A stretch of 47,936 nt of DNA, the filler included, from Catajapyx aquilonaris (Eukaryota), in NCBI GenBank assembly GCA_000934665.2. It is 2 parts of 2 records of this genome, joined end to end, with 100 filler letters (N's around TTAATTAATTAA, not from the genome) between each part and the next. Parts side by side here need not be neighbours in the genome. Positions count along the whole stretch, not along the records: positions 23,908 to 47,936 come from JYFJ02005627.1; 1 more part is not named here. One strand, 5' to 3'. Shown piece by piece: positions 341 to 46,597 of the stretch; within the stretch, counting starts at the first letter, position 1; each line of letters begins with the position of its first letter. The notes below the pieces were generated by a model, which ran no database searches, was not told where the DNA came from, and worked only from the letters and a program-made list of their open reading frames with translations. The translations under genes and the position numbers were made by a program.

Positions 341-1673
341 ATTAGTAATAAGGGCCGAATAAAATTGATTTCCATCCAAAATAAAAAATATTCAGAATAC
401 CTCCAAATACCATGTTACAGTTGGCAGGTGTGAAAATAGCGATTGCGCACAAAAACATCCAGCCGGTAATAGGCCCATATTAAATCGAGTTTAAAACGCA
501 GATTCGAATGGAATGCAAAGGATTGAACAGCATTTACTGCTGCATCGGCTGCATATGTTTCCCTGATTTTAGAACTTCTTATTAACTTTCCCATTCTAGA
601 CTCTCAGTTGACTAGAGAGTAGGTTCATATCCACCTTAACCGTCACTACACCACCTGCCCTCCTTCACTGCTTGTTCCCTCTTCCTCGGTTACTAGACTT
701 TTTGCTTCGTGGTAATTTAGTCACCATCCAAGAGATGACAGGAGTATATTGAACCGAATTAGGAACCGCAAAGCTCGAATTCTCTGTACAGCTTTGAGTG
801 CGCCAAATTCAAACATCTTCAGTTCCTCATATGATGCTCGTCGCCCTCAAGAGGTTAAATAGTTGGGTGTGATTATTTTGGTTTGAGTGAAAAAATCTGT
901 CACTCGATGTCATTATTACTGCCGCAGCTTTTTGGCCGTGACAAGGTATTTCGCTTCTGAATCACCCTTGATATCCTCATGAGGTGTTCTTCCCCTCTTG
1001 GTCATCCTTTGGACAGATCTTCCATGAAATGAATGATTTTGCAATATTGTGTAGACAGGCTGAAATGGGTAATGTAATGGGAAGTGATCATTTTGGATAC
1101 ATTTTTACAGTAGACTCTGGATATAACAGACTTCAAGGGACCATGGGGGGAAATCTGCCATGATCGAGGTCTGATATAACCGAGAGTTTGTTACAGCCGA
1201 TAGTCCGGGCAGATTTGTTGAAAAAATCCATTTCGCTAATATTTTGTAGTAATTTTGCAGGAAGTTGCTAACATAATAAGAAGGTGAAAAATCAACTTGT
1301 CGCCTAATTTTCTCCCACATATTACAGCCGCCATCTTGGAAAAATGGCGGCATAAACCAGATTTACTGGTTTATCTCTTTAACCGTTCATTTTATGGAAA
1401 GATATTTCAGGTCTGAAACTCTCGCCCTCTTATCATGTGCCGTTATCGGATCCCACCTGACCAGGGAGGTTGCCCCTGCAATAAGTGAAAAATTGGTGAT
1501 CCCTGCAGACCAAACCTCCCAAACCACCAATTCAAATCTAGCCTTGCTCTTTGTGCTTGCGCAATCTACTTCTTCCCACACATTCTACAGTGCATATTGT
1601 GCCATTGACATGTGTCTGTTTCTCTTTCTTCCACAGATCTTTTCCACATAGAGTGCCACTGATTGGTTGAGCC

Positions 1674-13600: not shown

Positions 13601-13646
13601 TGAGCATGCAGCTGGGGATGTGGGGAAGGGAGACGGTGACAATTAG
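1674..13646 (+). CDS. Multi-Tudor-domain protein (Tudor/TDRD6-like germline piRNA-pathway scaffold), 9 coding exons, ~2324 aa, nine extended Tudor domains plus acidic low-complexity C-terminus
   Basis: Exons with GT-AG boundaries and matching phases: 1674-2533, 3946-5044, 5627-6361, 6439-6638, 7871-8129, 8354-9202, 9580-10416, 11250-12270, 12532-13646 (6975 nt total, divisible by 3). Splicing rebuilds Tudor motifs across junctions (LYRAEV..VR|FVDYGN; YLRGK|V..VRLVDYG; WYRAVI..Q|VKFIDFGN). Other copies: WYRCVV..LIDFG, WYRAEI..VDYG, WSRVRV..VDYGNSE, HYRAVF..VDFGDS, WYRARV..LDYGDSE, WRRVKV..CDWG. Upstream acceptor at 1635-1636 implies a 5' non-coding exon. Orthology (tud vs TDRD6/TDRD1/TDRD15-like) cannot be fixed by eye. 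Confidence 0.9.
2600..3493. mobile_element. ~0.9-kb foldback MITE in Tudor intron 1, TTAA-flanked (Kolobok/piggyBac-type target)
   Basis: ~2600-3010 is the imperfect reverse complement of ~3070-3490 (e.g. TTTTTCAGAATCGCGTTCCAAG vs CTTGGAAAGCGATTCTGAAAAA); TTAA at 2596-2599 and 3494-3497. Confidence 0.8.
3636..3860. mobile_element. Small hAT-like non-autonomous element
   Basis: Termini CAGGGGTTGAATT ... AATATGACCCCTG, internal repeated GGAGTGCAAA; no clean 8-bp TSD (only ATGTAA shared on both sides). Confidence 0.45.
5196..5328. repeat. Inverted-repeat hairpin (MITE remnant) in Tudor intron 2
   Basis: TGGTCGCGTTGACG..GGACCAATCAAGACTCATGTACACAAGC pairs with GCTTGTTTACATGAGTCATGATTGGTCC..CGTCAACGCGACCA. 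Confidence 0.7.
10790..10965 (-). mobile_element. tRNA-derived SINE with V-domain-like conserved core, in Tudor intron 7
   Basis: Minus strand: Pol III A box TGGCGGAGTGG (10953-10943), B box GAGTTCGATAC (10910-10900), then GAGTTTAGATTGGTTCTCTCTGTGTTCGCATGGGTTTTCTCGGGGTTCTTCCGTTTCTTCCCACAATCAAAA, matching the V-SINE core pattern from memory. Confidence 0.75.
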
Positions 13647-19508: not shown

Positions 19509-20756
19509 TGCTTCCTGGTTCTAGCCTACATTTTGCAAACCAACCTTGTAAACAAAATCGTCCTGTTGGTGTGTTTTTTATAAAGAAATACGTATTAGTT
19601 CTCGAGCTGTGATCGATTGAATGTCATATTAATTATTACGGTATTGTATTCTGACGTCACTGTGGCGAAACAGATCGGTGCAGAGGCAGGAACGCACCCG
19701 GGCAGCTTTGTTTTGTTGGCACGCCTACCGCCTAGTAGAGCAGGTGAACTGGTTTTGCTGACGTCACTGTGGTTAGGCAGGAGTGGGAATGCGTCCGTCA
19801 GGCCACGCCCATTTGAGAGCGAATTTTAAACGTACGCGATAGTTGATCGATGTGTGGCATTTTGGTGCTTGTTTACATGAATGGTATACCGATTTTTTCC
19901 AAAATGTCAGACCAAGGCTAGGTTATTCGCAATCGAAGAATATTGTGTTTTGAGTCGGAAGCACCTGGCAACCGTGCCATGTTGTCGCCTGGTAACCTTT
20001 GCCAAGAAATCATGTTGGCGCCAACTGAAACCTGCGGGTTTGGCAAATCGATCAGTGCTTGGGAAGAATGCAATTCAAGTGTCACTGACTATATGCAAGG
20101 GGAAGAATTATCCAAACAACATCTGCTATAGTTACACTGCTAACTTAGCAATACCAGTGTTGGAACTGGCACTGCTAAAGTTAGAAGGAGCAGTGGGACG
20201 GAAAATTCAAATCTTTAGATTGCAAATTGTGATTATTATTTTTTTCCCTGCGACCGGCTGTGTAGTGTTGTGGCCAATAGCTGTAGTGACACTGGGCACA
20301 CTTCCAGAGCATTGTTGCAGACCAAGGCGCCATTGTTGTAGGTGACCAGCATGCAGCGGCCCAGAAGGAGGAGTAAGGTGGCCATGCTCCTTAGTAGGCA
20401 GCTTAGTTTCCCAGTCAGGTGAGCACAGGGACACCTGTATGTACTACACGTACGGAACAAAAATGCACGTGTACTGTGGGCGACCAAAAAAGATCGGTCG
20501 CCAACGGTACACACTGTTAGTAGTGCTGCACCCACCGCGGCTGCCACACTCTTGTCCTCCTCCAAGTACAGCAACATGTTTCTTCTTTATGGTCAATTCC
20601 CATTGTGTGTAGACGAGTATGAACGTCGTCCATTGTTGTAACTTGTGAGATACACACACACACGGCCCGCATATTGTTGTTACATGACGTCATCTTCTCC
20701 TTCTCTGTCCCCCTCTGGTCCACCTAGACGCGTAGGCCCCACCCACTCGAGAGCTG

Positions 20757-23700
20757 ATGGCCAATCCGAAGCAGTCCCAATCGGGCGGGGGAGACAGGCA
20801 CTTTTGGAGCCACCTCAGACTCTTTAGTCCCCATAAGTAAGTCCAATCCAACATTGAAACAAAACCAAACAAAAAAAAAAGAAAAAGTATTCCTCTTTCT
20901 CTGTAATCTCTTAGCTATCTCTATTGTTTCATTGCTAATATTAATCCTACCATCTTCACCTTTTTTGTGTGTGTGTTTGACTGAAACTCCCTGCATCTGG
21001 TTGGCTTCTCTCTATTACATACCATCTACCTTGTATGCTGCACGGTGAGATCAATCACTCTGGAGAATGAAAACTCGGCTCTTCCTGAGGATTGTCGCGG
21101 GATTTCCTGATTGTTGATGTGCCGAGTGTCTCTGGAAACAATGCTTCTGCTGCCTCCTTGACGCATCATTGCACTGCTTGCATGCATTATATACTTATTG
21201 CACCGTGCTTCCTACACGAGAGTGCAACGGTAGAAGTTTGGTTTGGGAGAGAATTGCGGGGAATCCCCTACTAAATATGTATGTCCACCGACGGTCCTCT
21301 ATTAGACATGTGCTGTGTGTCCCGTGTGTGGACTTTCTTGTTCCCTCTGTTGCATGTTAGACAATCACTTCCGGTCTTTTTTGGGAGGGTTGGTCTTCTG
21401 GATTACTCCGAACCGATTTGATGGTATTGATCACCCAGTATGGGGAATATCGACAGCTGTTCATTCGGAAGAGCTGCTGGCAAGGAGTTTTGTCATTCTG
21501 TCTTTTCCTCTCTTGCAAATTCCCCCCCACAGTCACGATTGATGGTCGTTTGGGTGGGTCGTAGTGGGTCATCGTGACCTTTTGTAATGATAAGGAGAGA
21601 GCACCCCTTTGCAGTCTCCGGCACGGCCTCTTCTGCACTTTTTAACTGTTTACGCCCTCACGATTTGAGCCTCAGTCACACGACCAGATGCTTTGTGCAA
21701 AGCGTCTGACCGTGCGACCGAGGCTCTAATCGTGAGGGCGTAAACAGAGGCCCCTTCCCTCACTCTGGCCTGGCTTCATTCACTATTAGCCTTTCATAGA
21801 CATGTCACCACGATCACTGCAGGCCGAGGGATTCATTGTAGTGGGGGATCACCCACTCTTGCTTCTAGTCCCACCCATCACAAGAGGGGGGGAAGGAGGA
21901 GGAATTGATTACAAGGGAGGGTCACCTGGAGAATATATCATTAATATCAGTGATTCCTCCTCCTTCCCTGCCTGTCCCCCCCTCCAGCATGCTGGGTGAG
22001 TCACCTGGGAATGTGTCACTGGGGTCATTCGACCAGTCACAATGATTCATCACCCTGTCAATTTGAACATCCTGATAACAGTCTGGGAACTGTCTGTGAC
22101 CTTTGATGTCACTGCCTAGCCAATGGCCCCGGGGGAATGACCCCAGTTCACTCCCAAGTGGTTGACCCGTCACCCCTCCCACCGGATGACCTCCTCATGT
22201 TTTGGTACTGCCCACTCACATCCCATCACCTTTTCGAACGCGGCTTCGACAGGAAGAAGTCCCTGGACAGCATGGGCTCCTCTGGGGTGCAGGGCGGCCC
22301 CGGGGCGGGACTAGTGGCGGCGGCAGCAGCGGCGGCCCCCCCAAGTGGTAGCGGACCGGCATCGACCTCCTCCTCCTCTTCTGCGCTGCCCCCAGTCAAC
22401 TCTTCCACCCAGGGGCAAACGGCCTCGGGACAGTCGGCCCAGGGGCAGCAAAGGGGCAGGCGGAGATCGCCAGTCAGCGGGAGGCGATCTGAGGGCACGC
22501 CCAGCTCCTCCTGCTCCGGGAGGGGCTCTCATCATGGCTCCCAGGAGGAGACGCTCGGCCCCGGGCCGGACCCGGACGCCGACCCGGGGGCGGAGCAGCA
22601 CCTGTCCAATGGGTCTTCCGCTGAGCAGCTGGGCCAGCCCCTGGTGGCCGTGGATGAGGTTGACGGCTGCCATGGACCTGGCGCAGGGGCTGCCGCCGGT
22701 GCTGGCACCCCGCAGTTGGGGAGAACCGTGGCCAACATGAGGCACGTCCAGGGAAAGATTTCCAGGACGATGGACCTCATCAAAGAGGAGCAGAGGCGGA
22801 GGGATGGTACGTGGCCCAAAATTATATTCCAACAACAAATCATATCTGAGTGCGTTGCCCAGTGTTTATTTCCATATATGACCATGCTTTACAAAAGGAC
22901 TGTTTGGTGCCCATTCCAGACAATGTGAATGAGTACTTGAAGCTGGCGTCCAATGTGGAGAGGATGCAGGTTCCGCAGGTGAAGGCGGTGTTTGAGAAGA
23001 AGAATCAGAAGTCTGCCCAGGCCATCGCCCAGCTGCAAAAGAAGCTGGAGAGATACCATCGCCAGATGGCTGATCTGGAGCAGCAGGCACACCACCATTC
23101 AATGTCCGTCCCGTCTGTGTCCGCCTTCTCTGCTGGGGGCGGAGGAGGAGGAGGAGGAGGGTCAGGTTCCACCACCATGTCCAGTGGGGGTGACGCTTCT
23201 TCCACTCCCCACCCTACTTCCTCCCACCCCCACCACCACCACCACCATCACCATCACAAGGGCGTCCTCAGAGATGTTGGACATGGGCTAAAAAGTGTCC
23301 GGGACGGAATCTCGGGTCTTTCTGGGTCAGTGATTCCAGCTGCATTGAGTAGTGTTTCAGTTGGCCTCTCTCTAACGCCATGTGTTTCCAGGACGGTGAT
23401 GTCGAAGCCACGTGAGTTTGCCCACCTGATAAAGAACAAGTTTGGTAGTGCCGACAACATCAACACCCTGGCAAAGAGCAGTGAGAACATGGGGGGTGCA
23501 GGTGGTGGTGGTGGAGGAGGAGGAGGAGTAGGGGGTGGAGGAGACAGGGGAGAGGTTGGGGACGGTGGGGGCAGCCACCACGGAAGCACCAATCTTCAGC
23601 AGTCCGGTCCAATTGGTGGTGGTGGTGGTGGGGGCGGTGGTAGGGTGGTGTCGGAGGAGGGTTCGGAGTGCAGCAGCTCGGTGACCAACGAGAGTGGGGC

Positions 23701-23807
23701 GGTGGGCCAACAGAGCGGACAGCTCCCGGCCCCGTCAGGCCAGTCCCAGTCCCAGCCACTGCCGCAAAGAGGGAACGAGGCCGAGTGGGTCTGGAGAGAG
23801 CTGCAGG
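20757..23807 (+). CDS. TMCC: Transmembrane and coiled-coil domain family protein (TMCC/Dementin/TEX28 family), 5' part, truncated by assembly gap
   Basis: Exons 20757-20836 (one of several candidate first exons), 22253-22806, 22920-23325, 23392-23807+. Spliced product contains family-typical KISRTMDLIKEEQRRRD|DNVNEYLKLA...VKAVFEKKNQKSAQAIAQLQKKLERYH and SKPREFAHLIKNKFGSADNI. The second coiled coil and C-terminal TM helices were not found in the window. Confidence 0.9.
21646..21747. repeat. 102-bp palindrome in TMCC intron
   Basis: 50-nt arms CTGTTTACGCCCTCACGATT... / ...AATCGTGAGGGCGTAAACAG with 6 mismatches and a 2-nt centre. Confidence 0.85.
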
Positions 23808-23907
23808 NNNNNNNNNNNNNNNNNNNNNNNNNNNNNNNNNNNNNNNNNNNNTTAATTAATTAANNNNNNNNNNNNNNNNNNNNNNNNNNNNNNNNNNNNN
23901 NNNNNNN
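23808..23907. other. Artificial assembly gap/linker
   Basis: N44 + TTAATTAATTAA (stops in all six frames) + N44 = exactly 100 nt. A second 7-N gap lies at 38615-38621. Confidence 0.95.
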
Positions 23908-25136
23908 AAAATGAATCATTAACTAATACACATGTATCTGAAACATTTCAGCTTCGGAAATCCAGATATAACATGCACTTATGCACAAAGGATTGGCATT
24001 TTTTCCAGATTTTACATTTCAGCGGGCTCAGTCAACTAGAAACCACATTATATTCAAGACTTTGCCAAAAAATGCATCATGGCTTTTTAATAAAGAGGTG
24101 ACTGTTGATTATTCTTAATATCTGTCACACTGGATGGCGAATGGTTCGATGACTGAGTTTGTTGTATTGATTCCTTTTGCCAATTTCCAAGATCTGTAAA
24201 ATCAAAAGGGTTTGAAACCATATCCTCCTGAGACCCCTAGTACACCTTTCAATCACTTTTTTTTTTACGCGTTTGAGTTAGTCAGAAGGTGCTGGAAAAA
24301 ACAAAGGTACAGTATACTGTACCAGGGGTCTCAGGAGGATAAGATGTTTTTTTTTTTTTTTCCCAAGAACTCTGACTGGAAGAGGATACAACCACGGTGA
24401 AATAAATCCAGGGTTGTAAGCCCTGATTGGCCAATTTGTAGTTCCGAAATTGGAAAATTTGCGAATTTCAAGGCCAAATATCTCAAAAGGGAGGGGGGGG
24501 GGGGACCTGCAAAAAATGTGTTGGCCATGGGTACTAGTACTTACAAGGGAAGACCGTGACGTGTCACTAACGGATTTGGACAAAAATCGCTCAGTGGGTA
24601 AATCACATGCGTAGAATATATTCACTGGTGAATGTAAAAACCCACACTTCGCAGCCATTTTCGAGATATGAGTGACGTCAGATCCGGCGCGCTCAATATA
24701 GTGCATCCTCTTGCTCCCTTTTTAGACTTTTTATCATCATCGAAAAAAGTCTCATAGAACGGCTCTGTCTGTCCGTCTGTTGACAGGTATCAGGCCCTCA
24801 ACCGCAACAGATACTGAGCGGCAAACTGTTTTCGGATTCGGATTAAACGTGACCTAAATAGGTGACCGATTTTCCGGGTTCAGAAGAGTTTTAATCGCAT
24901 AGCTTCGTCCACTTCCGATCACACCACAGATGATGACACGGAACAGGATGAGGAATATGTGAGCAACGACGAACATGATCCTAAGTACAACAAAGTGCAG
25001 AAACCACAGAAGAAACGAAGTGTTACTTTACATCCAAGGCAGCACTAACATATACAACCGAGTCGTATCACCACCACTTCCATATTTTAATCAACAATCA
25101 GGTTAGTTATACAGGACTTGTGACTGAATTAATGTA

Positions 25137-25223
25137 CAGTCCCACTCATAAAGAATGGTACTACTCGGCTACTCGCCAGCATATTCAAAGGGGAAATCGT
25201 ACCATTCTCTATGAACGGTACTG
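25137..25223. mobile_element. 87-bp Tc1/mariner-type mini-MITE
   Basis: TA-CAGTCCCACTCATAAAGAATGGTAC ... GTACCATTCTCTATGAACGGTACTG-TA. Confidence 0.65.
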
Positions 25224-25599
25224 TAAAAGCGTACTTGTGATACAATGGCAATGATGATGTAAACCATTCTGCAGGTAGTAGCAGTGACCATCAGAGCCAC
25301 AACCTGAGTGTGCAAATTGGGGACTCCGCCTCATCTTCCACCCCCATTGGTGACAGGTCTGAACACAGATGTCCACTATCAGATACTGATGGCAATGATG
25401 AAGATGCCAAAGTGTCAGAGGTCACTCTCAAAGAAATTGGGGTAGCCAACATAGTTGAAAAGCTGCTAGTTCATGCAGAGAAGAGGCGTGATGCAGGAAC
25501 AACACAATGGGGATCCCCAAGCACATCCGTTTCGCTGGAAGGTGAGTGGATCGTTAACTTGTGACAACTGCAGACCTGCTGGATATGCATGCATCACCA

Positions 25600-29235: not shown

Positions 29236-32228
29236 TTATCGAGAAGCAGATCTCAGGCTCACCACTAATACTACAGTAGATGCAGCACACCAACGCCTAA
29301 TAAGGCAAGAGGTTAAGCATTGGCAGGGTGTGTTGGAGCGGCTCATGGCTATAACGATTTTCTTATCCGAGCACAACTTGGCATTTAGGGGGCATACTGA
29401 GAAATTTTTCGGACAGAACAATGGGAATATTTCCTGGGTTTAGTAGAACTCTTGGGGAGGTTTGACGATGTTATGAGGGAGCACCTCCGACGCATTTCTG
29501 CCGGTGAAGCGTCTGATCATTATTGCAGCAAGACAATCCAGAATGAGTTGATAAATCTGTTGGCCAGCGAAGTTTTAAAACATATTCTCTCTAGAGCAAA
29601 GCTGGCCAGATATTTCTCAGTCATTCTGGATTGCACCCCTGATGTGAGCCGATCTGAAAAGATGTCTTTCATAATTCGATTCGTGGACATACACGGAGGC
29701 TCTGCTAGTGTGAAAGAACATTTTATTGGTTTTAAAGAGGCATGCAGTTCCACAGGTGAAGGCCTTACTGAACTAATTTTAGAAACTTTGTGTCAGCACC
29801 AACTAAAGTTAGAAGATGTCAGGGATAAGACAACGGTGCCAACAAGGTGGGGAAGTATAAAGGCGTTAGCACCAGACTGTTGGTATTAAATTCTAGAGCC
29901 GCATTTGTGCCATGTGGATGCCATTCACTTAATCTAGTAATTTCCGATGCTGCCTCCACAACGGCAGATGGAATGACACTGTTTGGGGTTCTCCATCGCA
30001 TATACATACTCTTTGCCGCCTCTGTCCAACTTTGGCAAATCATGCAGAAGCATATCCCTGTTCTAACAGTCAAACCGCTAAGTGAAACAAGGTGGGAGAG
30101 CCGCGTTAGCAGTGTGAAGGCAAAGATTATGTATGATGCTCTCTGTGAAATCTCAGAATCGACTTCAGATGTAGGGTTGAAGCACGAAGCTCATTGTCTA
30201 GCTGAGAAGCTGTTAGATTTTAAGTTTTTGGTCTCACTTTGTACCTGGTATGATATCTTGAGTAACATAAATGTTGTGAGCAAAGCTATGCAGAACCAGG
30301 ATATGAATTTGGTTACTGCGTGTTAATTGATGGAAGGGTGTCTGGCCTATTTGTCTACTTATAGAGAAGAAGGATTCAATGAGGCTGTCAAAAAAAGCAA
30401 AAGAAATGGGCGAAACTTTAGATGCTGAAGTTGAATTTGTAGAGGCAGTGCGGAGAAGGAAGAAGAAGAAGATATTTGATTATGAAGGGGAGGACGAGGG
30501 AATGAACGAGACACCAGAGGAGCGCTTCAAGAGGATTTTTTTTTTAAATGTAACAATTGATAGAGTGTTGATGTCTGTACAAGAGCGGTTGAAGCAGTTT
30601 ACACAGCATCAAAGTTTGTGGGGGTTTTCTCTATGATTTGGAAATACTCCCTACAGACCTATCCTCCCACTGCAAAGACCTCCACAATGCCCTGATGGAG
30701 GGTGATAATGCTGATTTGAATGGGTCTGAGCTGAATGATGAACTCAGAAGCTTAAATTTTATACTACCAAAAGGGCACGGGACCCCAATTAAGGCTCTGA
30801 ATTTCATAATTCAGAACCAGCTGCAGGGAACATTTCCACATGTGTGGGTCGCATTGAGGATTTTGCTCACAATTCCAGTTACTGTGGCCAGTGCTGAAAG
30901 GAGCTTTTCTAAATTGAAGCTGATAAAAACATATCTGAGATCGACAATGGCAGATGAGCGTTTATCTTCGCTGGATAAGCTTTCTATCGAAAATGGTATC
31001 GCCCATGAGTTGGACATGTCGAATCTAATCCACACCTTTGCAGAGGCAAAGGCTCGAAAGGCACCCTTTGTTTGAGTAAGTGTGGAGGTGAAAAGCAAAA
31101 GGCAGCTGGTAAGTCCGTCATAAAAAATTATACAGGAGCGAAGAAAAACGTGCCATCTGGAAACGCTTCCAAGCTGTAACTACTTGATAGTGGGATTGAA
31201 GAGATGATTTTTTTTTCTCTACATTTTTAAATATCAGATTTGAAAATCATGGGTTGGTAGTTCATCCGCAAATCGGGGAGTAGGTTCGGATCTAGCTGCT
31301 TTTGCTTGTCACCTAGTGGAAGTGACTGGTTTTGCTTGTGGAAAACTGTAGTAATAACGATTAAAATCCCAAAACAGTGTCGTAACAATAAAAAAGTGAA
31401 TTAGATAGTGGGACTACCGCTACTCATGTAGATGTTTCATGGAAGCACAATAATAAACATACTTCTGATACAGGTTCAAGGATTGAAAAAATTTATTGCC
31501 TCTACACCTATCACCGTAATGTAATTCATTGGACCTAGCTGCTTTTGCATACACAATAAGGACTTCATGGCTTGGATGTAGCTTACTTTGCATAGCACAT
31601 ATACTTTTGCAGCCGCTTTACAGCTGGATCTGCTTGGATATGCTGCACCATTTTTGAGTACCAGGTAGAGGACAACATGGGGAAGCCGATGGCACTTCCA
31701 ACTCATTTTTTCCCACGGTCGGATCTAACTGCCTTTGCTTTTAACCTCTACAAGTTATCTAAATATGTATTTATTATATGATTTCAAATGTTTTGAAATG
31801 AGTTGTAATGGTTTGATTTGTGTGTATTTGTTAATAATTTTTGTTTCCTTGTAAAACCATTTTATGTCACTTTGCCATATATTTTCATGTCTTCCATCAA
31901 TCCTTTACTACGTTTTCTTACGTACGTTTTCTTAGGTTAGTGTGTAATATGAAAATGTAAGAACTTCTTTCCAACAAAATACCATTACATGAAACTGCAG
32001 GACAAGTAATTATAATGGCAGTCGTCATTATTTTGTCAAGTGCAAGGTACTACATCAAAGTGGATGAACTTCTGTTTTTGTAATGTTGTTAAATTTCAGT
32101 GAGGTAATGTAATATGTATGACAAGATGAAGATCAATAAAACGCAATAAGTTCCAAAAGTAATTACTGTAAAAAGTCAGTTTTTAATGGGGGGGGAGGGG
32201 GGCGCCATATTACCTAAGTCCGCCCCTG
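29236..32228 (+). mobile_element. hAT transposon (ZMYM1-like DUF4371 + hAT dimerisation domain), pseudogenised transposase 29236-31075, right TIR present
   Basis: HNLAFRGH..NNGN, HYCSKTIQNELI, YFSVILDCTPDVS, VPCGCHSLNL, SETRWESR, VTVASAERSFSKLKLIKTYLRSTM; at least three frameshifts/stops; ends ...CCTAAGTCCGCCCCTG (hAT-type CAGGGGCGGA terminus) at 32228. Left end not found. Confidence 0.9.
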
Positions 32229-33744: not shown

Positions 33745-34870
33745 AATCTTGATCAAGTTGCAGTTTTAACAACTTTGCTTTGTCATTTACCAGTCTGATT
33801 TAACTTTTAAATTCAATTAAATACAACTTTGATAATGTAAATTCAGTTAACTTCAATCTAAAGCCTGTGCCATACTTCCTTTTCTTTCTGGTTCAAGTTA
33901 TACATACTGAAATGTAACAAGGGCAAATTCTGTTTGTAAGTGAAATATGGCAATACAATCATATTGATTAACATCATACCGTTTACGAAACGTTATTATG
34001 TGACCTAGCTTCCAGTGTTACTTATCTCAACTCATGGGCAGCCACAGCTTCACAAGTGGAACAACGGAAGAGCAAGGATTACCGATGTAAGGTCTGTAAA
34101 CTTGACACCGTGTTACCCCAGGAAAGTTGGGGGGCCAACCCATGTAGATTTTGAGGCACCTAAGAAAATGGAAGAATGATTCATTCAGCAAATTGCTTGT
34201 ATATGCTCTTGAACCTAAAACCAACCACAATCTGAGGCGACGTGGTCACCCATCAGCGAATCAAGTCTGGAGCTGCCGCAGCTGTCGGACCAGTTCCTGG
34301 CTGAGTACGGGATTGGGGAGGGGGTCAGTCCAGCTGTCCCGGCCATTACCCGGGCGCGGAATACGATTCCCAATCCGGTGGCCTCGACGACATCAGGACG
34401 AGGCCACGCTGTCCTCTCACAGAGGAAAAATGATGTCGGACAAGTTCCCGACGGAGCTTGGGGCGATGGAGGAGGTCAGTCCAGCTGTCCCGGCCATTAC
34501 CGTGGCACGGAACCGTATCAACTCCCCCGTGGCCCCGGCTTCATCCGGTTGCGACAGCGTCAAGGGGCCCATTCGTCGCCGAAAGAGGATTCCGGGCCAT
34601 AGTGAACATCCATGTGGCACTCGCCGACAGCCAGGTCCGCGGGGAGCATGGCGGGTCAGAGAAGGCAAGCCGGTGACCCCGACCCACCACACGCCATAAT
34701 GTGTCAAGGGGATCCCTTATTTTAATTATTTTAATTATTTTATTTATGATTTATTTTTATCTTGTTTTGTTTTTCTCTCTCTCCCCTCTCTTTCGTACAA
34801 TGAATTGTTCCAGTGTTGAGCATAAATTTTGATTGTAGAAATTCTGGCGTTGCCAAAATTTCTTTCTGAT

Positions 34871-35320
34871 TGTCACGAAAGGGGCCATGATAGAATACAG
34901 TAACTTAACATCCACATGCGCGCCATCTTTTTAAACTCTTACAGTGTCGATCAAGGGCGGGCGAAGGTCACCTTTTTTACCATAAATTTTACATGTAGAT
35001 CGATGTATCGGCCATCTTCTTTTCTTTGGTGACTAATCAATCGTTGCATCACTTGTCGAGTTTTTCTTATTGTGAAGGACAAATCCTCACTATAAAAGCC
35101 GTCTTTCGGGTCCCAAAAAATCACTCTCTCCAGGACGACTCAACTAGAAGCTCCAAGCTCTGTAAGTAGCACCTAATTCTTGTACCTTTATAATTGTGTT
35201 TAAACAGGCAACCCTTGTCTGTGTGCACTGTGTACTATCAGTAATAAACCTTTTATATACTGTGAACACTTGTCTTTATCTTTTCTGGTGGCTTGGGTTA
35301 TTGGAAAACTTTAACGTCAA
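34871..35320 (+). mobile_element. Possible solo LTR
   Basis: Begins TGTCACG, has TATAAAAG at 35091 and AATAAA at ~35243, ends near CGTCA; no matching TSD found; abuts the 5'-truncated pogo ORF. Confidence 0.35.
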
Positions 35321-35344
35321 CTGTCTTGGGTTAATCACGTTTAG

Positions 35345-37128
35345 TTGATGACAGAGTCCGTAGACTGGCATGGAAATTTGCTTCTGCGAACAAGAAATCA
35401 TACCCAGCTAAATGGGATGAAAACGAGGCAGCTGGCGTGTCATGGATGAAGTGTTTCATGAGACGCCACCAGAAACTGTCAATTCGCAAGCCAGAACCTA
35501 CCAGTTTGTCTCGTTCACTCAGTTTCAACAAAGTAAATGTGTACAAGTTTTTTTATAATCTTGAAACTGTGCATCGCCGTTTTGGGACTATACCACCACA
35601 TCGTATATGGAATTTGGATAAAACTGGGCTGTCGACAGTACAGGAACCACCAAAAATAGTGGCACCTCGAGGGGTAAAGTAAGTTGGAAGTGCCACCTCT
35701 GCTGAGCGTGGACAACTGGTCACAATGATTGCAGCAATCAATGCAATTGGAAACCTCACACCACCAATGCTAATTTTCCCACGTGTTCACTTCAAAGAAT
35801 TCATGATAAGAGGGGCACCAACAGGCACAATAGGGGGAGCAACTTCATCAGGATGGTCAAATGATGTCGTGTTTGTCCGGTTTTTGAAGCACTTCATCCT
35901 GCATACCAAGCCATCAAAGAAAGAGCCTGTACTTCTCATCATTGACAATCATGAAACTCACTTGTCAGTGGAAGCATTAGATCTGGCATCATCGGCAGGA
36001 GTTGTGATGCTCACATTACCTCCCCATACATCCAACAAACTTCAGCCACTCGACAAAACCGTGTATGGACCACTGAAAACCTTCTACAACCAAGCTTTGC
36101 AGGAATGGCATAACAACCACCCAGGGAAATGTCTTGATATTTATTCCATTGCAGAAGCCGTTGGCAAAGTTTATGAACGTGCTTTTTCCACCACCAACAT
36201 TGTCAATGGCTTCAAGACCACGGGAATTTTCCCCCTGGACAGAGGTGTGTTCACAGATGATGATTTTCTGGTCTCATACGTGACAGATCGCCCTAATCCA
36301 GGCGTTGGAAGTGCCAGTGTAGCGACTCCAGTGCAAGCAGAACAACCTACTGCAGATTTTTTTTCCCACGCACCGTCTACTTCCTGCGTTCCTACATCAA
36401 TTGACAGTGAACTAGTGCTAAATGATGTTTCATCTCCAGAACCATCCTCTCCTGGTGCAGCCACAAGCAGTAAGCCAACCACATCACATTCGTTCTCACC
36501 TGAGGAGGTCCAGCCATTTCCAAAGGCACCGCCAAGGAAAGAAACCAGAAAAAGAGGAAGACCGACTGGGGCAACACGTATTGTAACAGACACACCTGAG
36601 AAGGAAAGTATTAGAATACTGAAGCAGAAGAAGATGAGAAAAGCAACATCGAAAAAGACTGAAAAGGGGAAGTCATGCTGTGGTCCTAAAGCTAAGAAGG
36701 TCGTCAAGCGTCAGCTATTTGAAAGTGAATCGGATGATGACGAAGAACCTCAATTAGACAGCGACAGTGATGCTTCAATTTCTGATGAGAGCCAGACCAG
36801 CCAAGGGGATGATGCCAGTGCTCCTGAAACGCAGAATTTAGCCATAGGAGATTACGTCTTGGTACAGTTTTTGAAGAAACGGGGGCAGCCAGACCACTTT
36901 GTAGGTCAGATTTGTGGCAAAGATACCAGCAACGCAGACTTCCAAATACGGTTTTACAAACGCATAAGAGGGACTTCAAATTTCCTGCCCGACTCCGATG
37001 ACATTTTTGATGTGGATTACTCAGATATTATTCGGAAGCTCCCACAGCCTGGGCAACAAGCAGGGACTTCAAGAGTGTCATCAAGAATATCTTTCAAAAT
37101 TGGGTTTGAAAACTACAACGTGAAATAA
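35345..37128 (+). pseudogene. pogo/Tigger-like (CENP-B HTH + DDE_1) transposase, 5'-truncated, one premature stop
   Basis: AGVSWMKCFMRRHQKLSIRKPE...RIWNLDKTG...GVK*VGSATSAERG...SSGWSN...LLIIDNHETH...LPPHTSNKLQPLD; single in-frame TAA at 35680-35682. Confidence 0.9.
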
Positions 37129-37543
37129 AATATATGCATTTTTTGTTGGGCACCATACAAAAAATGCAAATATTTTATTTTATGTTGTATGTTCTTGAAG
37201 TTGTAGTTGTTTGTAGTCACTGTGCTGGAAAATAAATTGTTCAAAGGAAGCATCAGATTGTTCCAAGGTACATCACCATATTGTACCATGGAACATTTGC
37301 AACACTCTCACATATTAATTATTTTTAGTAAAGTTATTAGTGATATACAAAATGAGTAAGTTCCATTGTGTGGGCAATAATATGCTTTATACATGGACAC
37401 TTTCATATGTTGAAAACATGACCAACTTTACTAAATAAAAATAAATGTTTAAAAAGTGTTCTATGGTACAGCCCTCTCCCCTACTCGTATATTCAACTTG
37501 TATGATTGCGCTTCCAAGAGAATGAATGTGTGTCTGTATCACG

Positions 37544-38010
37544 TCACAGTTTACAATCAGGCCATTTCGAATGTAAGCGAGGACTTGACCAGCAATGTAG
37601 TACGGTACTCCATGCATACGGTTTTTCATGGGTCACGTGCGGCCAGTAGCCACTAGCCCGAGCAGCAGATGTGTTTTTTCTCGGGGATACGCAAAACAAT
37701 CTGAGGATTTCGTCTCTTAAAGCCTTCCAGTCCCTGCAAGACCACTGCACTGGCAGGAAAGTCGTGTGATATTCCATTCCGTTCAGCATACTGATATGCT
37801 ATGCTGCTATAGGACCATGAAGAACATCGAAACCTATGAGATCATCCAATTGCAGGCGGAAGTCTCCAGTGTATAATATTCTTTTCCCATTACATGTTTC
37901 AAACAAGAACATTACAGAACCTGGGCAGTGGTCAATTGGTAGCAATGTCACCCAGAAAGGCTTGATGTAAAAACCTCGAGTCCATTAAAAGGACCTTCCT
38001 GCTGCGGAGT
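37544..38010 (-). pseudogene. Degraded Artemis/SNM1 (DCLRE1-family) metallo-beta-lactamase/beta-CASP nuclease fragment
   Basis: Minus frame 37963-37802 (missed by the ORF track): [49 protein letters not shown]. After a TAG (37801-37799) the same frame continues HISMLNGMEYHTTF. Compare Artemis [27 protein letters not shown]10-LH...YLDTTF. Confidence 0.75.
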
Positions 38011-38104
38011 AAACACAGGCCTACGGAAAGAAGCAACCGAGACAATAATGGCACAAGACAGTACTGCAGGTATGTAGTGTTGTATTAGGCCTAAAGACCA
38101 TCGA

Positions 38105-38305
38105 CTATAATTTTATCTGTTTCTTCAAGGAGCTCCTTGTGTGCTCTTCGTATGTGTCTTTAAATGTCACCCTACATCCTTGCTGACCACAAATAAATTG
38201 TCTTTGAGAACAATTTTGTACGGCATGGATGTGTCTTAGGTGGGTTGCTAATGCCGAGACTTTTCCGGGCAAGCTTCTGTTACAGACAAAACAAGTTAAT
38301 GCCAT
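38105..38305 (-). pseudogene. N-terminal C2H2 zinc-finger ORF fragment of the type seen in animal CACTA-like elements
   Basis: MALTCFVC...LATHLRHIH...FICGQQGCRVTF. Confidence 0.45.
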
Positions 38306-38349
38306 AATTATTATAATATGGAGAGAAATGACAATAATTCATTCATAAC

Positions 38350-38770
38350 TTGAATATTGAAGTCAATGCCCATAATATGTTGTTGTTGGCAGTGATTCTG
38401 GGCAGCACTTATCAAGGATCTGACTTTTATGGGCCTTTTCTGGGATCCCAACAGTGTGAATCTATATTCCGAGCTATGAGAAGCATGACGAGCATTTTCT
38501 CTACAGTAGTAAATTTTGGCATCCTCGGGCTTCTTCAGAGACTTCATCGCCTGGACGTGCAGATGGAGATTGCTATTTATGATGAAACAAGCTTGTTATG
38601 CCATCTAAAAAAAANNNNNNNGGGGGGGGGGGGACAGTAAGATCAGGAGGGCCTGCTCCGCAGGGAAAGCGAGTACGCATGAAGTCTTGACAGAGTACCA
38701 CAAAATATTTGAATGCATCCAAGTTGCTCAAGCAGAAGCCAACAAGCTCTTAAATAGTGTAGGGCTTCCA
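38350..38770 (+). pseudogene. Transposase-like fragment (P-element-related; family uncertain)
   Basis: FLGSQQCESIFRAMRSMTSIFSTVVNFGILGLLQRLHRL, then IFECIQVAQAEANKLL; spans a 7-N gap. Confidence 0.45.
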
Positions 38771-39364
38771 GAATACAACAATTGTGTACCTATGCTAAAA
38801 ACACGAACACTGCCTAAGAACCGAGCTAAGAACACGAAAGGTGATGCACATAGCGACTTCCTCGGTGACTTCATGTGCCCTAGTGACGAGGAAATTGATG
38901 CGTGGAATGAAGACTGGAATGTTTCTGAACTAGAGTTGAGCGAACCAGAAGGATTGCAGCAAGACCTGCTCCGCATGAAGGGAAGTCTCGAGGAAAGTCT
39001 GGAGCGAAACAGTGACTCAATCGACACAATAGATATGGGCATGAATAATACGTCAGTGACTCCACCAAATCAAGGGAAGAGTTCGGGAAGGAGGCATAAA
39101 AAACCAAAATTGGCCAAGAACGTGGGGTCATTTCCTACATATTCACCTACGGAATGTGATCCAGACTCAACAGAATGTGACTTGCCATCACACTATGTGG
39201 AGTATACAGATGGTCCGCAATCAGACCGTCCTGGTGGAATATGAGAAATATAGAAGTCTATAATAATCAGTCACTTATGGTAAAATTATCATCAGTAAGA
39301 TCCGGTAAGATGAATGTTCATTTCAATGGTACAGGATCAATCAGAGGATCAGAAATGGGGAAGG

Positions 39365-39470
39365 AGGATCAGTAGGGGGATCCGAGGATTGGTAGGGGAT
39401 CCGAGGATTGGTAGGGGATCCGAGGAGGATTAGAGGATCAGTGGAAGGATCACTGATCCTCGAGGATCTA
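39365..39470. repeat. 20-bp tandem repeat (GGATCCGAGGATTGGTAGGG), ~3 copies plus degenerate copies
   Basis: Directly visible; resembles transposon subterminal repeats. Confidence 0.8.
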
Positions 39471-39489
39471 GTACAAAAATCTTCGAATG

Positions 39490-40985
39490 TCGGACCCCTC
39501 GAGTAACTGGCTGAGTCACGTGCGTGAATTTTTGAATGAAAATGTAGATGAGTTGTCAGATGTGTCGTGGTCAGCATTCCACGCTAGCCGGAGCAGCGGG
39601 TCACCTGCATTAGCCGCCATCAACGCGCTCCTTCCCCTATTCCATGAAAAGTCGAGCTCTGTAGCAATGTTGCGGCATGGCATGAACGTTCTACGGGACA
39701 TAACTAAGTACCTGAACGGGTTATAAACGCCCGTCATGTGCGTCGATAAACTCATATACGCTATTTGCAAAAGAAAATCAAGTGGACCTGGTCCAGTGCA
39801 TATAGGGAGGATGAATTTGTGATCATTCTAGGACCTCTCCATATTGAAATGTGGTACCTATACCCCGCTATACGTATTCTGGGCCAGTTCATGCAAGGTT
39901 CAGGCTGGGGTGCAATTGCGTCCCAATCTGGCATCACGACGAGTGGCTGTGCGGATGCCTTGATGAAAGTAAGTCACCTAGTATGTCCTTCACTTCATTG
40001 TTAGTTGTATTCTGTTCTTTTCAATCTTATCGAGCTATCATGAATGGTATAACGCAGGTTACTCATGTCAAGAGAGCGAGGGAAGTCCACCAGGTGACTA
40101 CAGCTGTACTGCACTCTCTCCTCCTAGAAGCATAATTATGAAACCCTCGGTGATAAGACACTTCAGGGGTGGATCGAAGAGATGTCAAAATCATCACCCA
40201 CTTTTTATTACTGGCTCTTACTTTTGAATCTTGAGATTCTCTTGCTGTATTTTGTGCGCGCCGTAAGGCAAGGCAAATATACTATATAGGTATAATGAAG
40301 CGCTCAAGCGCATGGCACCATGGTATTTCTTGTACGATCATCCACACTACGCTCGGTGGCTTTCTGTTCACATCCAGGACATGGAGGAACTGCCGACTCA
40401 AGCTCCTGACGTTCACAAGGAATTCCTGGCAGGTAAGTGTCTCATTTACCTATCGCAAGCGTTCATAGTGTGATACATATGAGCCCATCACAAATGGTGA
40501 ACGAGCTGAAAGAGGAGCTTCGCAAAGCGGCAGCTGGCCGGACTGCCCTGCAGAACAAGAATGATAAGTTGAAGGAAAAAATTGAGCGGAAGGGTCGGCA
40601 GTTCGAGAAGATCTACGAGCTGAGGTAAGTTGTCAAATAGGGCATTATGGAAAGCCAGCTGTTCTTTCCTGAGCTATTGAATGGCATTACTTAATTGATT
40701 AATTGATATTCAACGTAGAGCTTCCACAGGCATGCTCCCGACTAATTGGGATGACTATCTGCGCAATGACTCGAACAAGGAAGAATTGTTCCACTACCTT
40801 GCTGGTGTAGTGCTCGATGGCTTGAAGGATGTGCACGTAGTGACAAATATTGGTACAGAAATCAGACATGGACCGTCGAAGTTGGGTGGTATTTCGTCGG
40901 CTCAAATGGAAAAGGCTGACGGAAGAATGATGCTGCACGTGAAAGACATGGTTGAGCACGGATCAGAGCGTGTTCTCATTCGTAG
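39490..40985 (+). pseudogene. Second, distinct Academ element: transposase domain and start of XPG-like domain, with apparent introns
   Basis: VSWSAFHAS..LLPLFHEKSSSVAMLRHGM..FVIILGPLHIEM..GSGW..ALMK|VTHVKRAREVHQVT..SPTFYYW..YDHPHYARWLSVHIQDM..EFLAG; later PTNWDDYLRNDSNKEELF..EKADGRMMLHV. Confidence 0.75.
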
Positions 40986-41563
40986 GTTAGTATATATGTG
41001 TGTATGCTGATAACTGGGGCTCACAAACAGGTATTTCTTAATTTTTGTGATGCATGGCAATTTCATTTATTCCAGGTATGACCTATCTAAGGCGTTATCA
41101 GTGGTGGAGTTCCCAGAGTCGAGTTAGAAGCAGTGCCCTCAAAGGGGATGGCATCATGTCATTCAAGTGATGATGGAGCAGCAGTGACCTGCTGGCGGCC
41201 GCCACCACATGAGAATGCGACAAAAATGGCAGCCAACAAAGAGGACCCTGATGTGTCCACTTGGGAACTCTTTCAAGGTGTTTCATTCCACTGGTGAATA
41301 TCAGTAGATATTTTCAAGTAGTCTTTTCATGTAGGAAATTGCATAACTGTCCGTAAGAGGACATGTTAATCTTGGATGTTGAATCTATGTGCTGCTGCTC
41401 CTTATAATTAAATTTCATTAAATTTTCAAGTTGTCTCATCACTGCACGACAAAAAGCCACTGGCAGAAGATCAAAGTGATATTGCTACAAACAATGACAA
41501 TCACCAGGCAGACCTGCAGGTGAAGATTCATCTAATTTTTGGTAAGTAATGGCTATTATTTGA

Positions 41564-41626
41564 TTCCACCTCAGCATACATCATTTCCACCTCAGCATAC
41601 ATCATTTCCACCTCAGCATACATCAT
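41564..41626. repeat. 21-bp tandem repeat, 3 copies
   Basis: TTCCACCTCAGCATACATCAT repeated. Confidence 0.85.
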
Positions 41627-42233
41627 TAGCTGGAAGTACATTTTCTCTTCATAAAATTGAATCACGTATGACGTAAGCTCAGTGACATTGCGATCTATTC
41701 AGCACGTATTAAATTTTATTAGTTTTACATTTTGTGGAAGACAATTATAATAAATATTGGCCTGTTGTGACAGAACAATAGTGCGCAGTTCAATTTGTTC
41801 AATTTTGTTAGGTAACATAAATCCCTATAGTCATGGAGCGCATCACAAAATGTGTACTATTTGCCTTTAAACTGAAGACATCCCATATATATACTGTATT
41901 TATGTACTGTATTTATGTATTATATATATTATACTGTATTTATGTATTTTATTATACTAGCAGCGGTGCCCGTTCTTCGCACGGGGAAAATAAGAGCGTG
42001 AAGATTTACACCGAGATCACCGAGAAGCAATATTATACGCAAAACTGCTCATTCCCTTGCGTAATAAAGAGCCAAGCAACTATGGTTATGTGGTTATCAG
42101 AATACAAAAAGGTGGGACAGATGGAGAGAGAAACGAGGAGGAAAAAGAAGAGAGCCAGGTCCCCTGAACCCTGAAAACAAGCAATTGGAACACTGACTAC
42201 GACGTTTGACTATTTTTATATATTTCTATAGGG

Positions 42234-42760
42234 TTGTCACTTACGAAAAGGGAATTATTCGAAATCATGAGGCAGGCACCCAGCAACGCCAATCAGCGTG
42301 CATTTTTTGAAGGGAAAGTGATGCAGTTGGTAGACCCTGATCCGGAAGCTGAAGGTTATGACTCCATGATTAAAACAATTAAGGTAGAACTCTCTAGATT
42401 TTGCAGCAAGTTTCAACAGAAATGGCAATCTTCTGTTAGGAATGCAAGCTATTTTGTGGAAAAATATGGAACAAGGCTAGAGGGGGAAGTCACATTTACG
42501 GACAAAGCGCAGAAGTCGGGCCATGCTACGCAAGAGGCTGGACGTGGTCGTCCCAGCAGAGACTTTGCAGAGAGTAGTAACCGATCAACTCAACAGATCA
42601 ACAGAAGAACTCCGCAGAACTACAACCACCCCGGAAGTGACTTACGCTGCACAAATGAAGCTGCGTCAAGCAGGAAACGAAGATTCCGCTAAATTAGTAA
42701 AAGAAGCAACAATAACTACTCCGTCAAGGGCCAAAAAGATTCGTCTGGCATACCGGAGAA
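42234..42760 (+). pseudogene. Transib transposase N-terminal fragment
   Basis: GRGRPSRDFAESSNRS / TEELR..EVTYAAQMKLRQAGNEDSAKLVKEAT.TTPSRAKKIR (one frameshift), typical of the region preceding the Transib/RAG1-like core. Confidence 0.7.
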
Positions 42761-42789: not shown

Positions 42790-43005
42790 CAGCAGACAGT
42801 TCAAATTGAGGCAGAGGACAAGTTGACCGGCAACCTGGCAGACAGACAGAGGGGTACTGGAGCAAGCACCTGAACAGACTGTGAGAGGATATCTCGCGAA
42901 CAGCTGGCCTCGAGACAATTTTGACACTATGTGTTGGATGCAGTGTCATGCTGCGTCGAAACATCGACTTACACGAGGGTTTGGTGAACGGCTCCATGGG
43001 CACTA
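42790..43005 (+). pseudogene. Helitron PIF1-type helicase fragment
   Basis: RTAGLETILTLCVGCSVMLRRNIDLHEGLVNGSMG (PIF1 'VML.RN....GLVNG' motif). A Helitron-like end ACTAGCAGCGGTGCCCGTTCTTCGCACGGG lies at ~41955-41985. Confidence 0.7.
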
Positions 43006-44732
43006 ATACCTTGCCCAAAATCATCTATGTATTTAATTTCGTAAAATGCGTAAGTAAGACCTCTGGGTTACATTAACCGTTATGGTGTAGCTCTTACGTG
43101 GTATCCGTCAACTAGCTCTTACTCTTCTTTTTTTTGTTTTAAATTCCGTAGGAAGTGTTTTTGGGATAATACATACTTGAACTAAAAAGTCTGTGTATAT
43201 ATACACACTTAACCTTAGTAAGTAACATACTGGTATGCAATTTCAGGAGATGGAATCAACAAGCAGCCATTTTGTGGATAACAAACACTTAAGGAAGCTT
43301 TTGGCATTGGCACACAAACATCGGCAACCTGTAGCCACAAATTTGTCGTCTTACCTAGCATCTCACGAAGGGGTAAGTAATGTGTCCAACTGTGCATGTA
43401 ATGTACTGTAATTATGTCAAATAATGTGATGCAAGTGTAATATGACTGTACCATAATATCACTATACATGTAAGGTACTAAGGTCTATGCTGTTGGTATA
43501 TGTATACAGAATTGTGTTTCACAATATGTATAGAGGTCCAATTATTTACCTGATTATTATTTCAGCTCAAAATAGACTGTGAGGTCCGATTTGGCAGGTC
43601 AATGTCACAGATGGCGACAGACATGAAAAAAATTCAAGAGGCCTATGCGTTGACCATGAAAGTGCCTGGAAGACCATTGAGGACCACCTCCGTGCTCCCA
43701 ATGGCATACACAATTTCGTTAATGAGGTGAGTGTTTTGAGATCGTGAGTTACTAACTTCTGGAAACACTTGGATAATGTAAACAATACCTAATTATCATC
43801 CTTTTTGGCAATCTAGGCAACCTCCTGCACCCCATGACAAATGCACATACTGTATCTCAAATGATTATTCCATTGTATTATGTATTCCGTCTTATAGTGC
43901 ATCATACCTGCATGCGTTTATCATTCCATGAGCAATTGGAAGTCTCCATAGAATTTGGAAAGTGCAATTAGAGTGTGCTACAAGATTAGGCCTATATAAG
44001 TGTCTAATTGTATATCTCTATATGTATGTTAGGTGGATTTATCTCCTGACACCCCACGACCACCTGGGCCATGCCTCTACAGGGGGAAAACGTCACGGGG
44101 AGGATAAATTCAAACTGAGATAGGGCTTTCCATGCAATGTCATGCACTTAACGTAATTATTTTCACACACTTATAAGTGAGCTAAAAATGTGAGAATTGG
44201 CAGACCTGTAACCCAGACATCCAAGACAACGTCAAATGTCCAGAATCACACATTTTCGCCCTGGGGCCGGCCCACGGGCGAAAGTTCTTAGGCAAGGCAA
44301 AAAGGGCATAATTCCCTTCTTGGCCAACCGAATGACACAACAGCGTCGCGAAGGCAATCACCTACGTATGCCCAGACCAGGTAGAAGCTGCTGAAGTGTT
44401 CCGGTTAGTGAATGACTTCTTTGACATCTTCAATGCCCGTTGCCATACTGGAAGCCAAAATCAACTCGCGAGTGGATCTGGGTCGTCAAATTTGCGTGCC
44501 CAGTTGAAGGTTATGTGCAACTTCAAAAGGTTTCGCGCAACAATGCGCTGCAAGGGGAAGACAAGTCTACTGCCCTTCCAGAAAGGATTCCTAATGAATA
44601 TTCGTGCACTGAAAGGACTGTATTCCTTTTTCACCAGCAATGGCGGGAGGTATATCTTAACCTCCCACTTAAACCAAGACATTCTTGAGAACCTGTTTTC
44701 TCTGATTAGGGGCCTTGGACATTTCTATGACC

Positions 44733-46597
44733 TGTGATAGGAGAAAAAGGAGATACTGGGTGGATGCATAGTAAGCAGAGAGTCACCGCCACGAGGTCTA
44801 TGATGCAGGCAACACTCACAAGATGAGAACATGAGGTTCCCAGGAGATAGAGCAAGTGACATAATTATGAGCCCAAGTCATGAGGGGCACAAGTCATGAT
44901 GAGAACTATGAACATATAGCAATCAGACAAGATGACAGAATTTGGAAAAGGTAAACGCGAAGATGGCCTCTTTAGATAAGAAAGATAGGGACCTGTTGCA
45001 TTTAGTAGAGGACCAGGCAACCATTCTCAACACGGTTGATGGCCATGTGGAGAGAAATGAAAGACTGTTGGGTAAATTGGCTAACATCACTGGGGAATTA
45101 AGTACGGCTGTAGCATCTCTGTCAACCGAATTGGTAGAGCAGGTTGGAAATTTGGGAGAGAGAATTTACATTATGGCCATGATAGAAACATATCTGAGGG
45201 TGATGGAGCTGACCCTGACACAATGTCAAGTCGAAGTCTCTTTGCTGGCTGACTCATTGGACGTGACCTCTCAGGGACGTTTAAGTCCGTACATTTTGGG
45301 TCCATCTGACTTGTTCTTGACTTTACAACGAATTTCTTTGAAGCTGCCAACTCATTTAAATTTTATTGTCACCTTACGGGAAGACTCCATTTTTTCTTAC
45401 TACAAGTGGGCTAAAGTCCACACAGCTGCAACCCCCACTTCCACCCGCCTTTTCATTGAAATCCCACTCAGAGACTCGAACCAGTATTTTCTTGTATACA
45501 ATGTAATCCCTTGGCCTACCCTGATCAATGCTACTGATACAGCCCTCGTTATCCAACCCGACTCCCCCTACCTTGCTGTGACGGAGGACCAGCAGTCCTT
45601 TGTGGAACTTACCATCCAAGATCTACCCAGATGCTTGCAAGGTCCTATCAGTGTGTGTTTCCCCAGTCAACATATTTCCACTCCCCCGTCTACCTCCTGC
45701 CTATACCAATCCTTCGTGCAACTGCCAGCCCGCCATCGCGTCTGCCACGAGAGGGCGAGACCGAGGAAATGAAGGTTGCCATGTGATGGTCCAGCGCTTA
45801 TGCTGCAGCTGGGGAGGTGGCGTGCAGAAAGGATGAGTGGCAGCCACCGGAGCAGCCGAAGATGACGCCAGGTGGAACTTTAGGGGCACCTTGCTGCTAC
45901 AGCGACGGCGTCCCGTGTTCGAGGGACACCGTGCGCTTGTCCTAAGGAAAGGCGTATGTGATAGGAGAAAAAGGAAATACTGGGTGGATGCATAGTAAGC
46001 ATAGAGTCACCGCCACGAGGTCTATGATGCAGGCAACACTCACAAGATGAGAACATGAGGTTCCCAGGAGATAGAGCAAGTGACATAATTATGAGCCCAA
46101 GTCATGAGGGGCACAAGTCATGGTGAGAACTATGAACATATAGCAATCAGACAAGATGACAGAATTTGGAAAAACAAAGGGAAGGGCAGTCAGGACGGAG
46201 AGAGGACCGTGGGCAGTCGATCCAGGCTGACCGGGACGTTCGAGAATTGGACAGCGATTGACCCGCAGGAGGTCAACGAGGACCCAGCAGAGGACCAACT
46301 AGGCATCCGGAGCAACACAGTGAGTAGAGGGAGCATACAGCAGAGAACCGGGGATATACAGTGTACCTACCAGGAACCGTAGTGTAGCGTAGCCCACTTG
46401 TGAATAAATCTGTGCCGCAAATGAAGTAATATGTAAAAGCAGTCCAAGCCAAGTTGATTCCCCTACCCAGGAGTGCCCCTAACCCACGGCCGCTTGAACC
46501 CTTCTCGGGTCCGGCACCTTACCTCGCTTCCCAAGTGCACCCAACCAGTCCCTCTCCCCTCCTTACCCACTCCTACCCCACACAACCTCCCGTTACA
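44733..46597 (+). mobile_element. Internally deleted Gypsy/errantivirus-like LTR retroelement retaining only env
   Basis: Partial 5' LTR 44733-44949 nearly identical to 45957-46173; full 3' LTR 45957-46597 (TG...CA, AATAAA 46403); purine tract AAGGAAAGG before it; 4-bp TSD GACC/CACC (1 mismatch). Confidence 0.85.
44942..45772 (+). pseudogene. Envelope glycoprotein fragment (baculovirus F / errantivirus env-like)
   Basis: 276 stop-free codons: heptad-rich region then GRLSPYILGPSDL...SYYK...IEIPL...YNVIPWP...YLAV...C...C...SCL; lacks signal peptide and TM anchor. Confidence 0.7.

Follow-up and report, generated by a model that had tools for sequence, protein, structure and literature searches.

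Results

The window analysed here is a stretch of 47,936 nucleotides (48 kb) of DNA from Catajapyx aquilonaris. On its minus strand, the frame at 37984-37544 reads through as an open frame save for a single TAG at 37801-37799, and it includes a block with similarity to Artemis (DCLRE1C) at 37754-37960. In a 415-position Artemis profile the block matches positions 113-178, which correspond to human Artemis residues of about 105-168; it represents no more than about 16% of the catalytic domain. Its best part is a well-preserved core of 46 codons (37814-37951, minus strand), delimited by alignment to human Artemis residues 107-152 and by identity comparison, which carries the motif-3 His codon at 37930-37928 and the motif-4 Asp codon at 37864-37862. 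On the 3' side of the TAG, profile and pairwise alignments place the sequence YHTTF (37757-37771), the counterpart of YLDTTF, in which a His stands where the Asp should be (codon 37768-37766). YHTTF lies in the same frame as the core and at the expected spacing, with no intron between the two. The remainder of the open frame past the block (37544-37753, minus strand) is without reliable Artemis similarity; pairwise tblastn stretches the similarity weakly as far as 37676. This frame had been described in an earlier sequence-only reading of the locus, and its transcription, coordinates, and single stop were borne out.

Upstream of the block and co-oriented with it is a 66-codon ORF (38105-38305, minus strand) with an ATG at 38305 and a stop at 38107-38105, which ends 145 nt before the start of the Artemis similarity at 37960. 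The sequence-only reading had placed a C2H2-like ORF about 150 nt upstream on the same strand, in agreement with this distance. The ORF encodes a single C2H2-like finger together with a truncated second pattern of the form CX4C...H. Its sole family signal is a sub-threshold match to Pfam zf-met (E 0.05), none of 18 candidates from a word-based search scored as a homologue, and its Atlas features are generic C2H2-like only. The "CACTA-type" label that had been attached to the ORF was not upheld, as neither Pfam, the homologue search, nor Atlas gave any similarity to the N-terminus of a CACTA/EnSpm-type transposase. Nor was a region resembling the ORF found in 184 Artemis-family proteins (best E 0.81).

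The surroundings contain several transposon relics. The nearest transposase is a pogo/Tigger-type DDE_1 relic at 35326-37142 on the plus strand, opposite to the Artemis-like block (PF03184, E 2.7e-15; ORF 35683-37128), which falls on one contig at single-copy depth. Pfam detected hAT domains at 29401-31075 (plus strand), a relic that lies 6.6 kb from the block and again on the opposite strand. At 42885-43073 (plus strand) there is a piece of a Pif1 helicase 2B domain (E 3.8e-7), probably a Helitron relic, such pieces being typical of Helitrons. An ORF at 44936-45772 (plus strand) contains a Baculovirus F/envelope-like domain (E 9e-18) of the kind that occurs in envelope-bearing LTR elements of arthropods. 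Between these lies a series of frame-shifted plus-strand ORFs at 38338-40470, present at single-copy depth, which may resemble conserved transposase-family proteins of animal DNA-transposon families; no Pfam family matched them at E≤0.5, and Atlas returned nothing usable for 39472-39723. A 7-N gap at 38615-38621, between a poly-A and a poly-G run on the plus strand, is probably an assembly join, and the sequence across it is uncertain.

Two further gene regions occupy the first part of the window. A TMCC-family exon is found at 22850-23863 on the plus strand (Tmemb_cc2, E 1e-43) and terminates in two N runs of 44 nt each, at 23808-23851 and 23864-23907. The named rows among the 120 matches listed for this exon are all arthropod, with only 32-43% identity, from which the host would be an arthropod-like animal with no closely related sequences in that database. 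Six or more Tudor domains (Pfam TUDOR, E from 6e-7 to 2e-28) were detected in a run of large plus-strand ORFs at 1280-13646, which resembles a large-exon gene of the multi-Tudor (TDRD) type.

The similarity of the block to Artemis was recovered in several searches. When the frame 37984-37799 was compared with the PDB by phmmer, human Artemis was matched at E 7e-11 (45 bits), with query residues 11-57 pairing with residues 107-152 of full-length human Artemis chains, followed by Apollo (E 7e-8, 36 bits), SNM1A (E 2e-6, 31 bits), and CPSF73 (E 0.08). A phmmer search of 1.84 billion representative proteins gave 260 matches at E≤1e-3, the best with an E-value of 2.8e-13, and the core is 57-76% identical to the best proteins of other species. 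For the third search, a profile of 415 positions was built from 85 of 184 retrieved family members, those 330-480 aa long, and run against the window's 1938 six-frame ORFs, among which the block scored E 1.7e-22 and the runner-up 0.27; the match to the block covers model positions 113-159 on the stop-bounded ORF and 113-178 when the stop is read through. In addition, tblastn of 29 Artemis proteins against the window returned 37999-37676 as the sole matching region. The sequence-only reading had named HCPG and TGDFR as metallo-beta-lactamase (MBL) motifs 3 and 4, and the alignments agree: the His of HCPGS and the Asp of TGDFR are both present and line up with their counterparts in human Artemis and in the profile consensus. 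We take these residues to be H115 and D136 of Artemis, positions that fit the PDB alignment.

A Pfam scan of the 61-aa piece gave no family match, which could be taken to mean that the similarity arose by chance. The proposed check for an MBL/beta-CASP HMM match was thus negative for Pfam and positive for the family-specific profile. Chance is refuted by the E-values of the profile, representative-protein, and PDB searches, and we regard it as having practically no claim on the data. Judged by these scores, the block is a true Artemis-family match, far above chance.

To place the fragment within the family, it was included in a maximum-likelihood tree of 60 rows, in which it falls inside a clade of 52 Artemis-named proteins (SH-aLRT 94) and, within that clade, in an insect-dominated group of 33 rows (SH-aLRT 93). 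The fragment sits on a long end branch, of 2.15 where the median is 0.5, and is in none of the starred clades of this quick tree. A tree had been proposed to distinguish a host-Artemis-like sequence from a separate clade; it came out on the side of the former, with the long branch noted. Both the tree position and the PDB scores (45 bits versus 31 for SNM1A and 36 for Apollo) assign the fragment to the Artemis subfamily over SNM1A and Apollo. The top source-named matches that were looked up are all "protein artemis", artemis-like, or MBL proteins, bar one from Acropora, which is an uncharacterised protein with two DRMBL-type units. The sources of the named matches are beetles, mosquitoes, a lacewing, springtails, a mayfly, a scorpion, a barnacle, nematodes, fishes, and a sea cucumber. 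A Pfam scan of 14 matches with unusual architectures found MBL/DRMBL families in 11 and a transposase in none.

The rest of an Artemis gene is missing from the window. Profile positions 1-112, which include HxHxDH (MBL motif 2), are unmatched anywhere in the 48 kb by tblastn or profile, and positions 179-415, the beta-CASP/DRMBL region with motifs A, B, and C, are unmatched at E<0.27 in the 1938 ORFs. No other parts of an Artemis gene were found in the 10 kb upstream or the 37 kb downstream of the block that the window covers. Several weak candidates were considered and set aside. Profile matches at 34747-34872 and 20520-20723 are in the wrong order to be beta-CASP parts. The sequence HCQQQHIMGIDFNI (HCQQQHIMGID; 38394-38353, minus strand), upstream of the block on the same strand, recalls the HCHxDHMxGL of Artemis except that other residues take the place of the middle His and of the Asp, and its HCQQQH portion (38394-38377, minus strand) was picked up by tblastn at E 2.8-9.3 with three queries; it was rejected as a decayed motif 2 because it lies in another frame and has no profile support. 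Likewise, 41181-41345 (minus strand) was rejected as an upstream exon, since the tblastn match is weak, spans two overlapping frames, and is without profile support.

What remains is unevenly preserved. Over residues 12-45, the fragment has a mean identity of 0.69 to the 85 real Artemis proteins, compared with 0.67 among the real proteins themselves. Over residues 58-98, the tail, its identity is 0.18 versus a real-real mean of 0.36 and is the lowest among 73 rows. Eight tail matches to one protein (P0063) were discarded as an artefact of a tandem repeat in that protein. A core without detectable decay could belong to a live exon or to a very recent copy. Since the core is nearly intact and the tail can no longer be recognised, the fragment may be a fairly young duplicate of a single exon together with flanking non-coding DNA, or else a variable region may have been aligned unevenly; a colinear copy in which that region has diverged beyond alignment would fit as well. 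That YHTTF is found at the expected spacing speaks for some colinearity past the core. As far as its sequence can tell, the block encodes no nuclease, because it is incomplete, is interrupted by an in-frame stop, and has lost an Asp.

Copy number was assessed within the window and from sequencing depth. At neither the protein nor the DNA level does the window contain a second copy of the block or of the zinc-finger ORF, and no inverted repeats, direct repeats, or element ends bracketing the block were found. Depth was taken from the contigs of four DNA runs of one sample at ≥80% likeness in 667-nt bins, and the values given are totals across contigs and do not represent copy numbers. The runs listed as containing the stretch were these four, with no RNA run among them. 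Long contigs at a depth of 18-40 served as the single-copy reference. The bin 37915-38581 has a summed contig depth of 51-77, about twice single-copy, and the bin 38582-39248 has 23-36; for true repeats nearby the values run from 750 to 8900. The bin that holds most of the core is dominated by an adjacent high-copy repeat at 37106-37455, directly downstream of the fragment, with a summed depth of 750-2400 compared with about 34 for single-copy sequence. Depth beside the block is not repeat-like, which speaks only weakly against a multicopy family of recent origin. A 76-nt palindrome (37114-37189) lies within this adjacent repeat, at its border with the pogo relic.

Discussion

We consider it probable that the fragment is an isolated, non-functional relic of a host-lineage Artemis (DCLRE1C/SNM1C-family) gene. 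About 50-70 codons remain from the middle of the metallo-beta-lactamase domain, retaining the motif-3 His and the motif-4 Asp together with a damaged YLDTTF. Downstream of these codons are a high-copy repeat and the pogo relic, upstream a short zinc-finger ORF that is unrelated, and, stranded in this position, the codons would do nothing for the adjoining transposons. The source may have been a small piece of the host Artemis gene that was duplicated or captured, or else an extra Artemis copy that was broken up through insertions and deletions. Origin in the host lineage is the simplest reading, in keeping with the arthropod matches of the TMCC exon, and a parent gene in the same organism would be presumed. 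One of the two origins offered by the sequence-only reading, a stray host pseudogene, thus fits in substance, as the fragment is isolated, contains a stop, and groups with insect Artemis proteins. A search of the literature for Artemis pseudogenes in arthropods returned nothing relevant. As a relic, the fragment is a further example of a dead gene piece among repeats and of little weight, though it warns that catalytic motifs can stay conserved in non-functional scraps.

Two other accounts of how the core came to be here were weighed. If 37960-37814 were a live exon of a working host Artemis gene, with the other exons beyond the window and the introns filled with transposons, the undecayed core would be expected, and so would the AG and GT dinucleotides seen by inspection at its edges; the short gene predictions of other species that end before VTLLP, or after LH(S/D)G or TGDFR, also hint at a border there. 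Such a gene, however, should have an HxHxDH exon, which is absent from the 10 kb upstream, and a YLDTTF/DRMBL exon, which is absent from the 37 kb downstream, where the TMCC and multi-Tudor genes instead run on the opposite strand. YHTTF follows the stop in frame and with no intron, for which a dead colinear copy is the better fit, and we rate a live exon as very improbable. Passive capture of a gene fragment by an exon-transduplicating DNA transposon (Helitron or Pack-type), a special case of the relic, has somewhat more to recommend it, given that the block has the size of an exon, that its core is intact, that its flanks show no homology, and that it sits in a transposon-rich setting (pogo DDE_1, hAT, the Pif1 2B piece, and high-copy repeats). 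Terminal repeats or element ends were nonetheless not found around the block, the Helitron-like piece is 5 kb distant, and neither further copies in the window nor a repeat-like depth was seen, so that we hold this route to be possible but rather unlikely.

The second origin offered by the sequence-only reading was a transposon family that carries its own nuclease, in which case the locus would be the decayed remains of an arthropod DNA transposon, of a type not yet described, whose protein joins an N-terminal zinc finger to an Artemis-like hairpin-opening nuclease. The zinc-finger ORF and the Artemis-like block are co-oriented and only 145 nt apart, and the biology is plausible: passages in PMC3299998 report that excision of hAT (Ac/Ds) elements leaves hairpins which Pso2 and Artemis open, so the premise that Artemis can open transposase hairpins is sound to the extent of those passages. 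Several results stand against such an element. No transposase is co-oriented with the block or adjoins it, the small share of the catalytic domain that survives is unaccompanied by other beta-CASP parts anywhere in the 48 kb, and the zinc-finger ORF is without relatives and unlike any region of the Artemis-family proteins. None of the 14 unusual Artemis-like matches carries a transposase family, the fragment groups with ordinary insect Artemis and not with a separate lineage, and neither the depth nor the window search gave a multicopy signal. With no second copy in the window, no beta-CASP parts, and no linked transposase, the proposal found no support, and we think it highly doubtful. If it were true, the element would process its own excision hairpins, and a family that was multicopy, transposase-linked, and in possession of intact beta-CASP frames would be the first transposon known with its own hairpin opener. 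Judged from titles and abstracts, literature searches turned up no transposon-borne beta-CASP/MBL nuclease, in line with the statement of the sequence-only reading that it knew of no described example.

The fragment can also be compared with known systems. Artemis itself (DCLRE1C/SNM1C), the hairpin-opening beta-CASP nuclease of NHEJ, shares with the fragment the HCPGS His and the TGDFR Asp over residues 107-152, but the fragment is without HxHxDH, the beta-CASP/DRMBL region, and the C-terminal region and has a stop and an altered YLDTTF Asp. DNA transposons with an accessory nuclease are alike in concept, and Academ elements, for instance, carry an XPG-type nuclease; an intact nuclease ORF, element ends, and multiple copies were, however, not seen here. 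The fragment differs from gene-fragment pseudogenes and transduplicated exons in transposon-rich DNA in that no carrier element, ends, or sister copies were identified for it. In other respects it is like them, being exon-sized, out of context, interrupted, and set amid transposon relics.

Further repeats are distributed across the second part of the window. Very high-copy sequence is found at 23908-25241 and 41917-42583, where the summed contig depth is 2200-8900, and short tandem arrays with units of 19 nt and 21 nt are present at 39357-39445 and 41564-41627.
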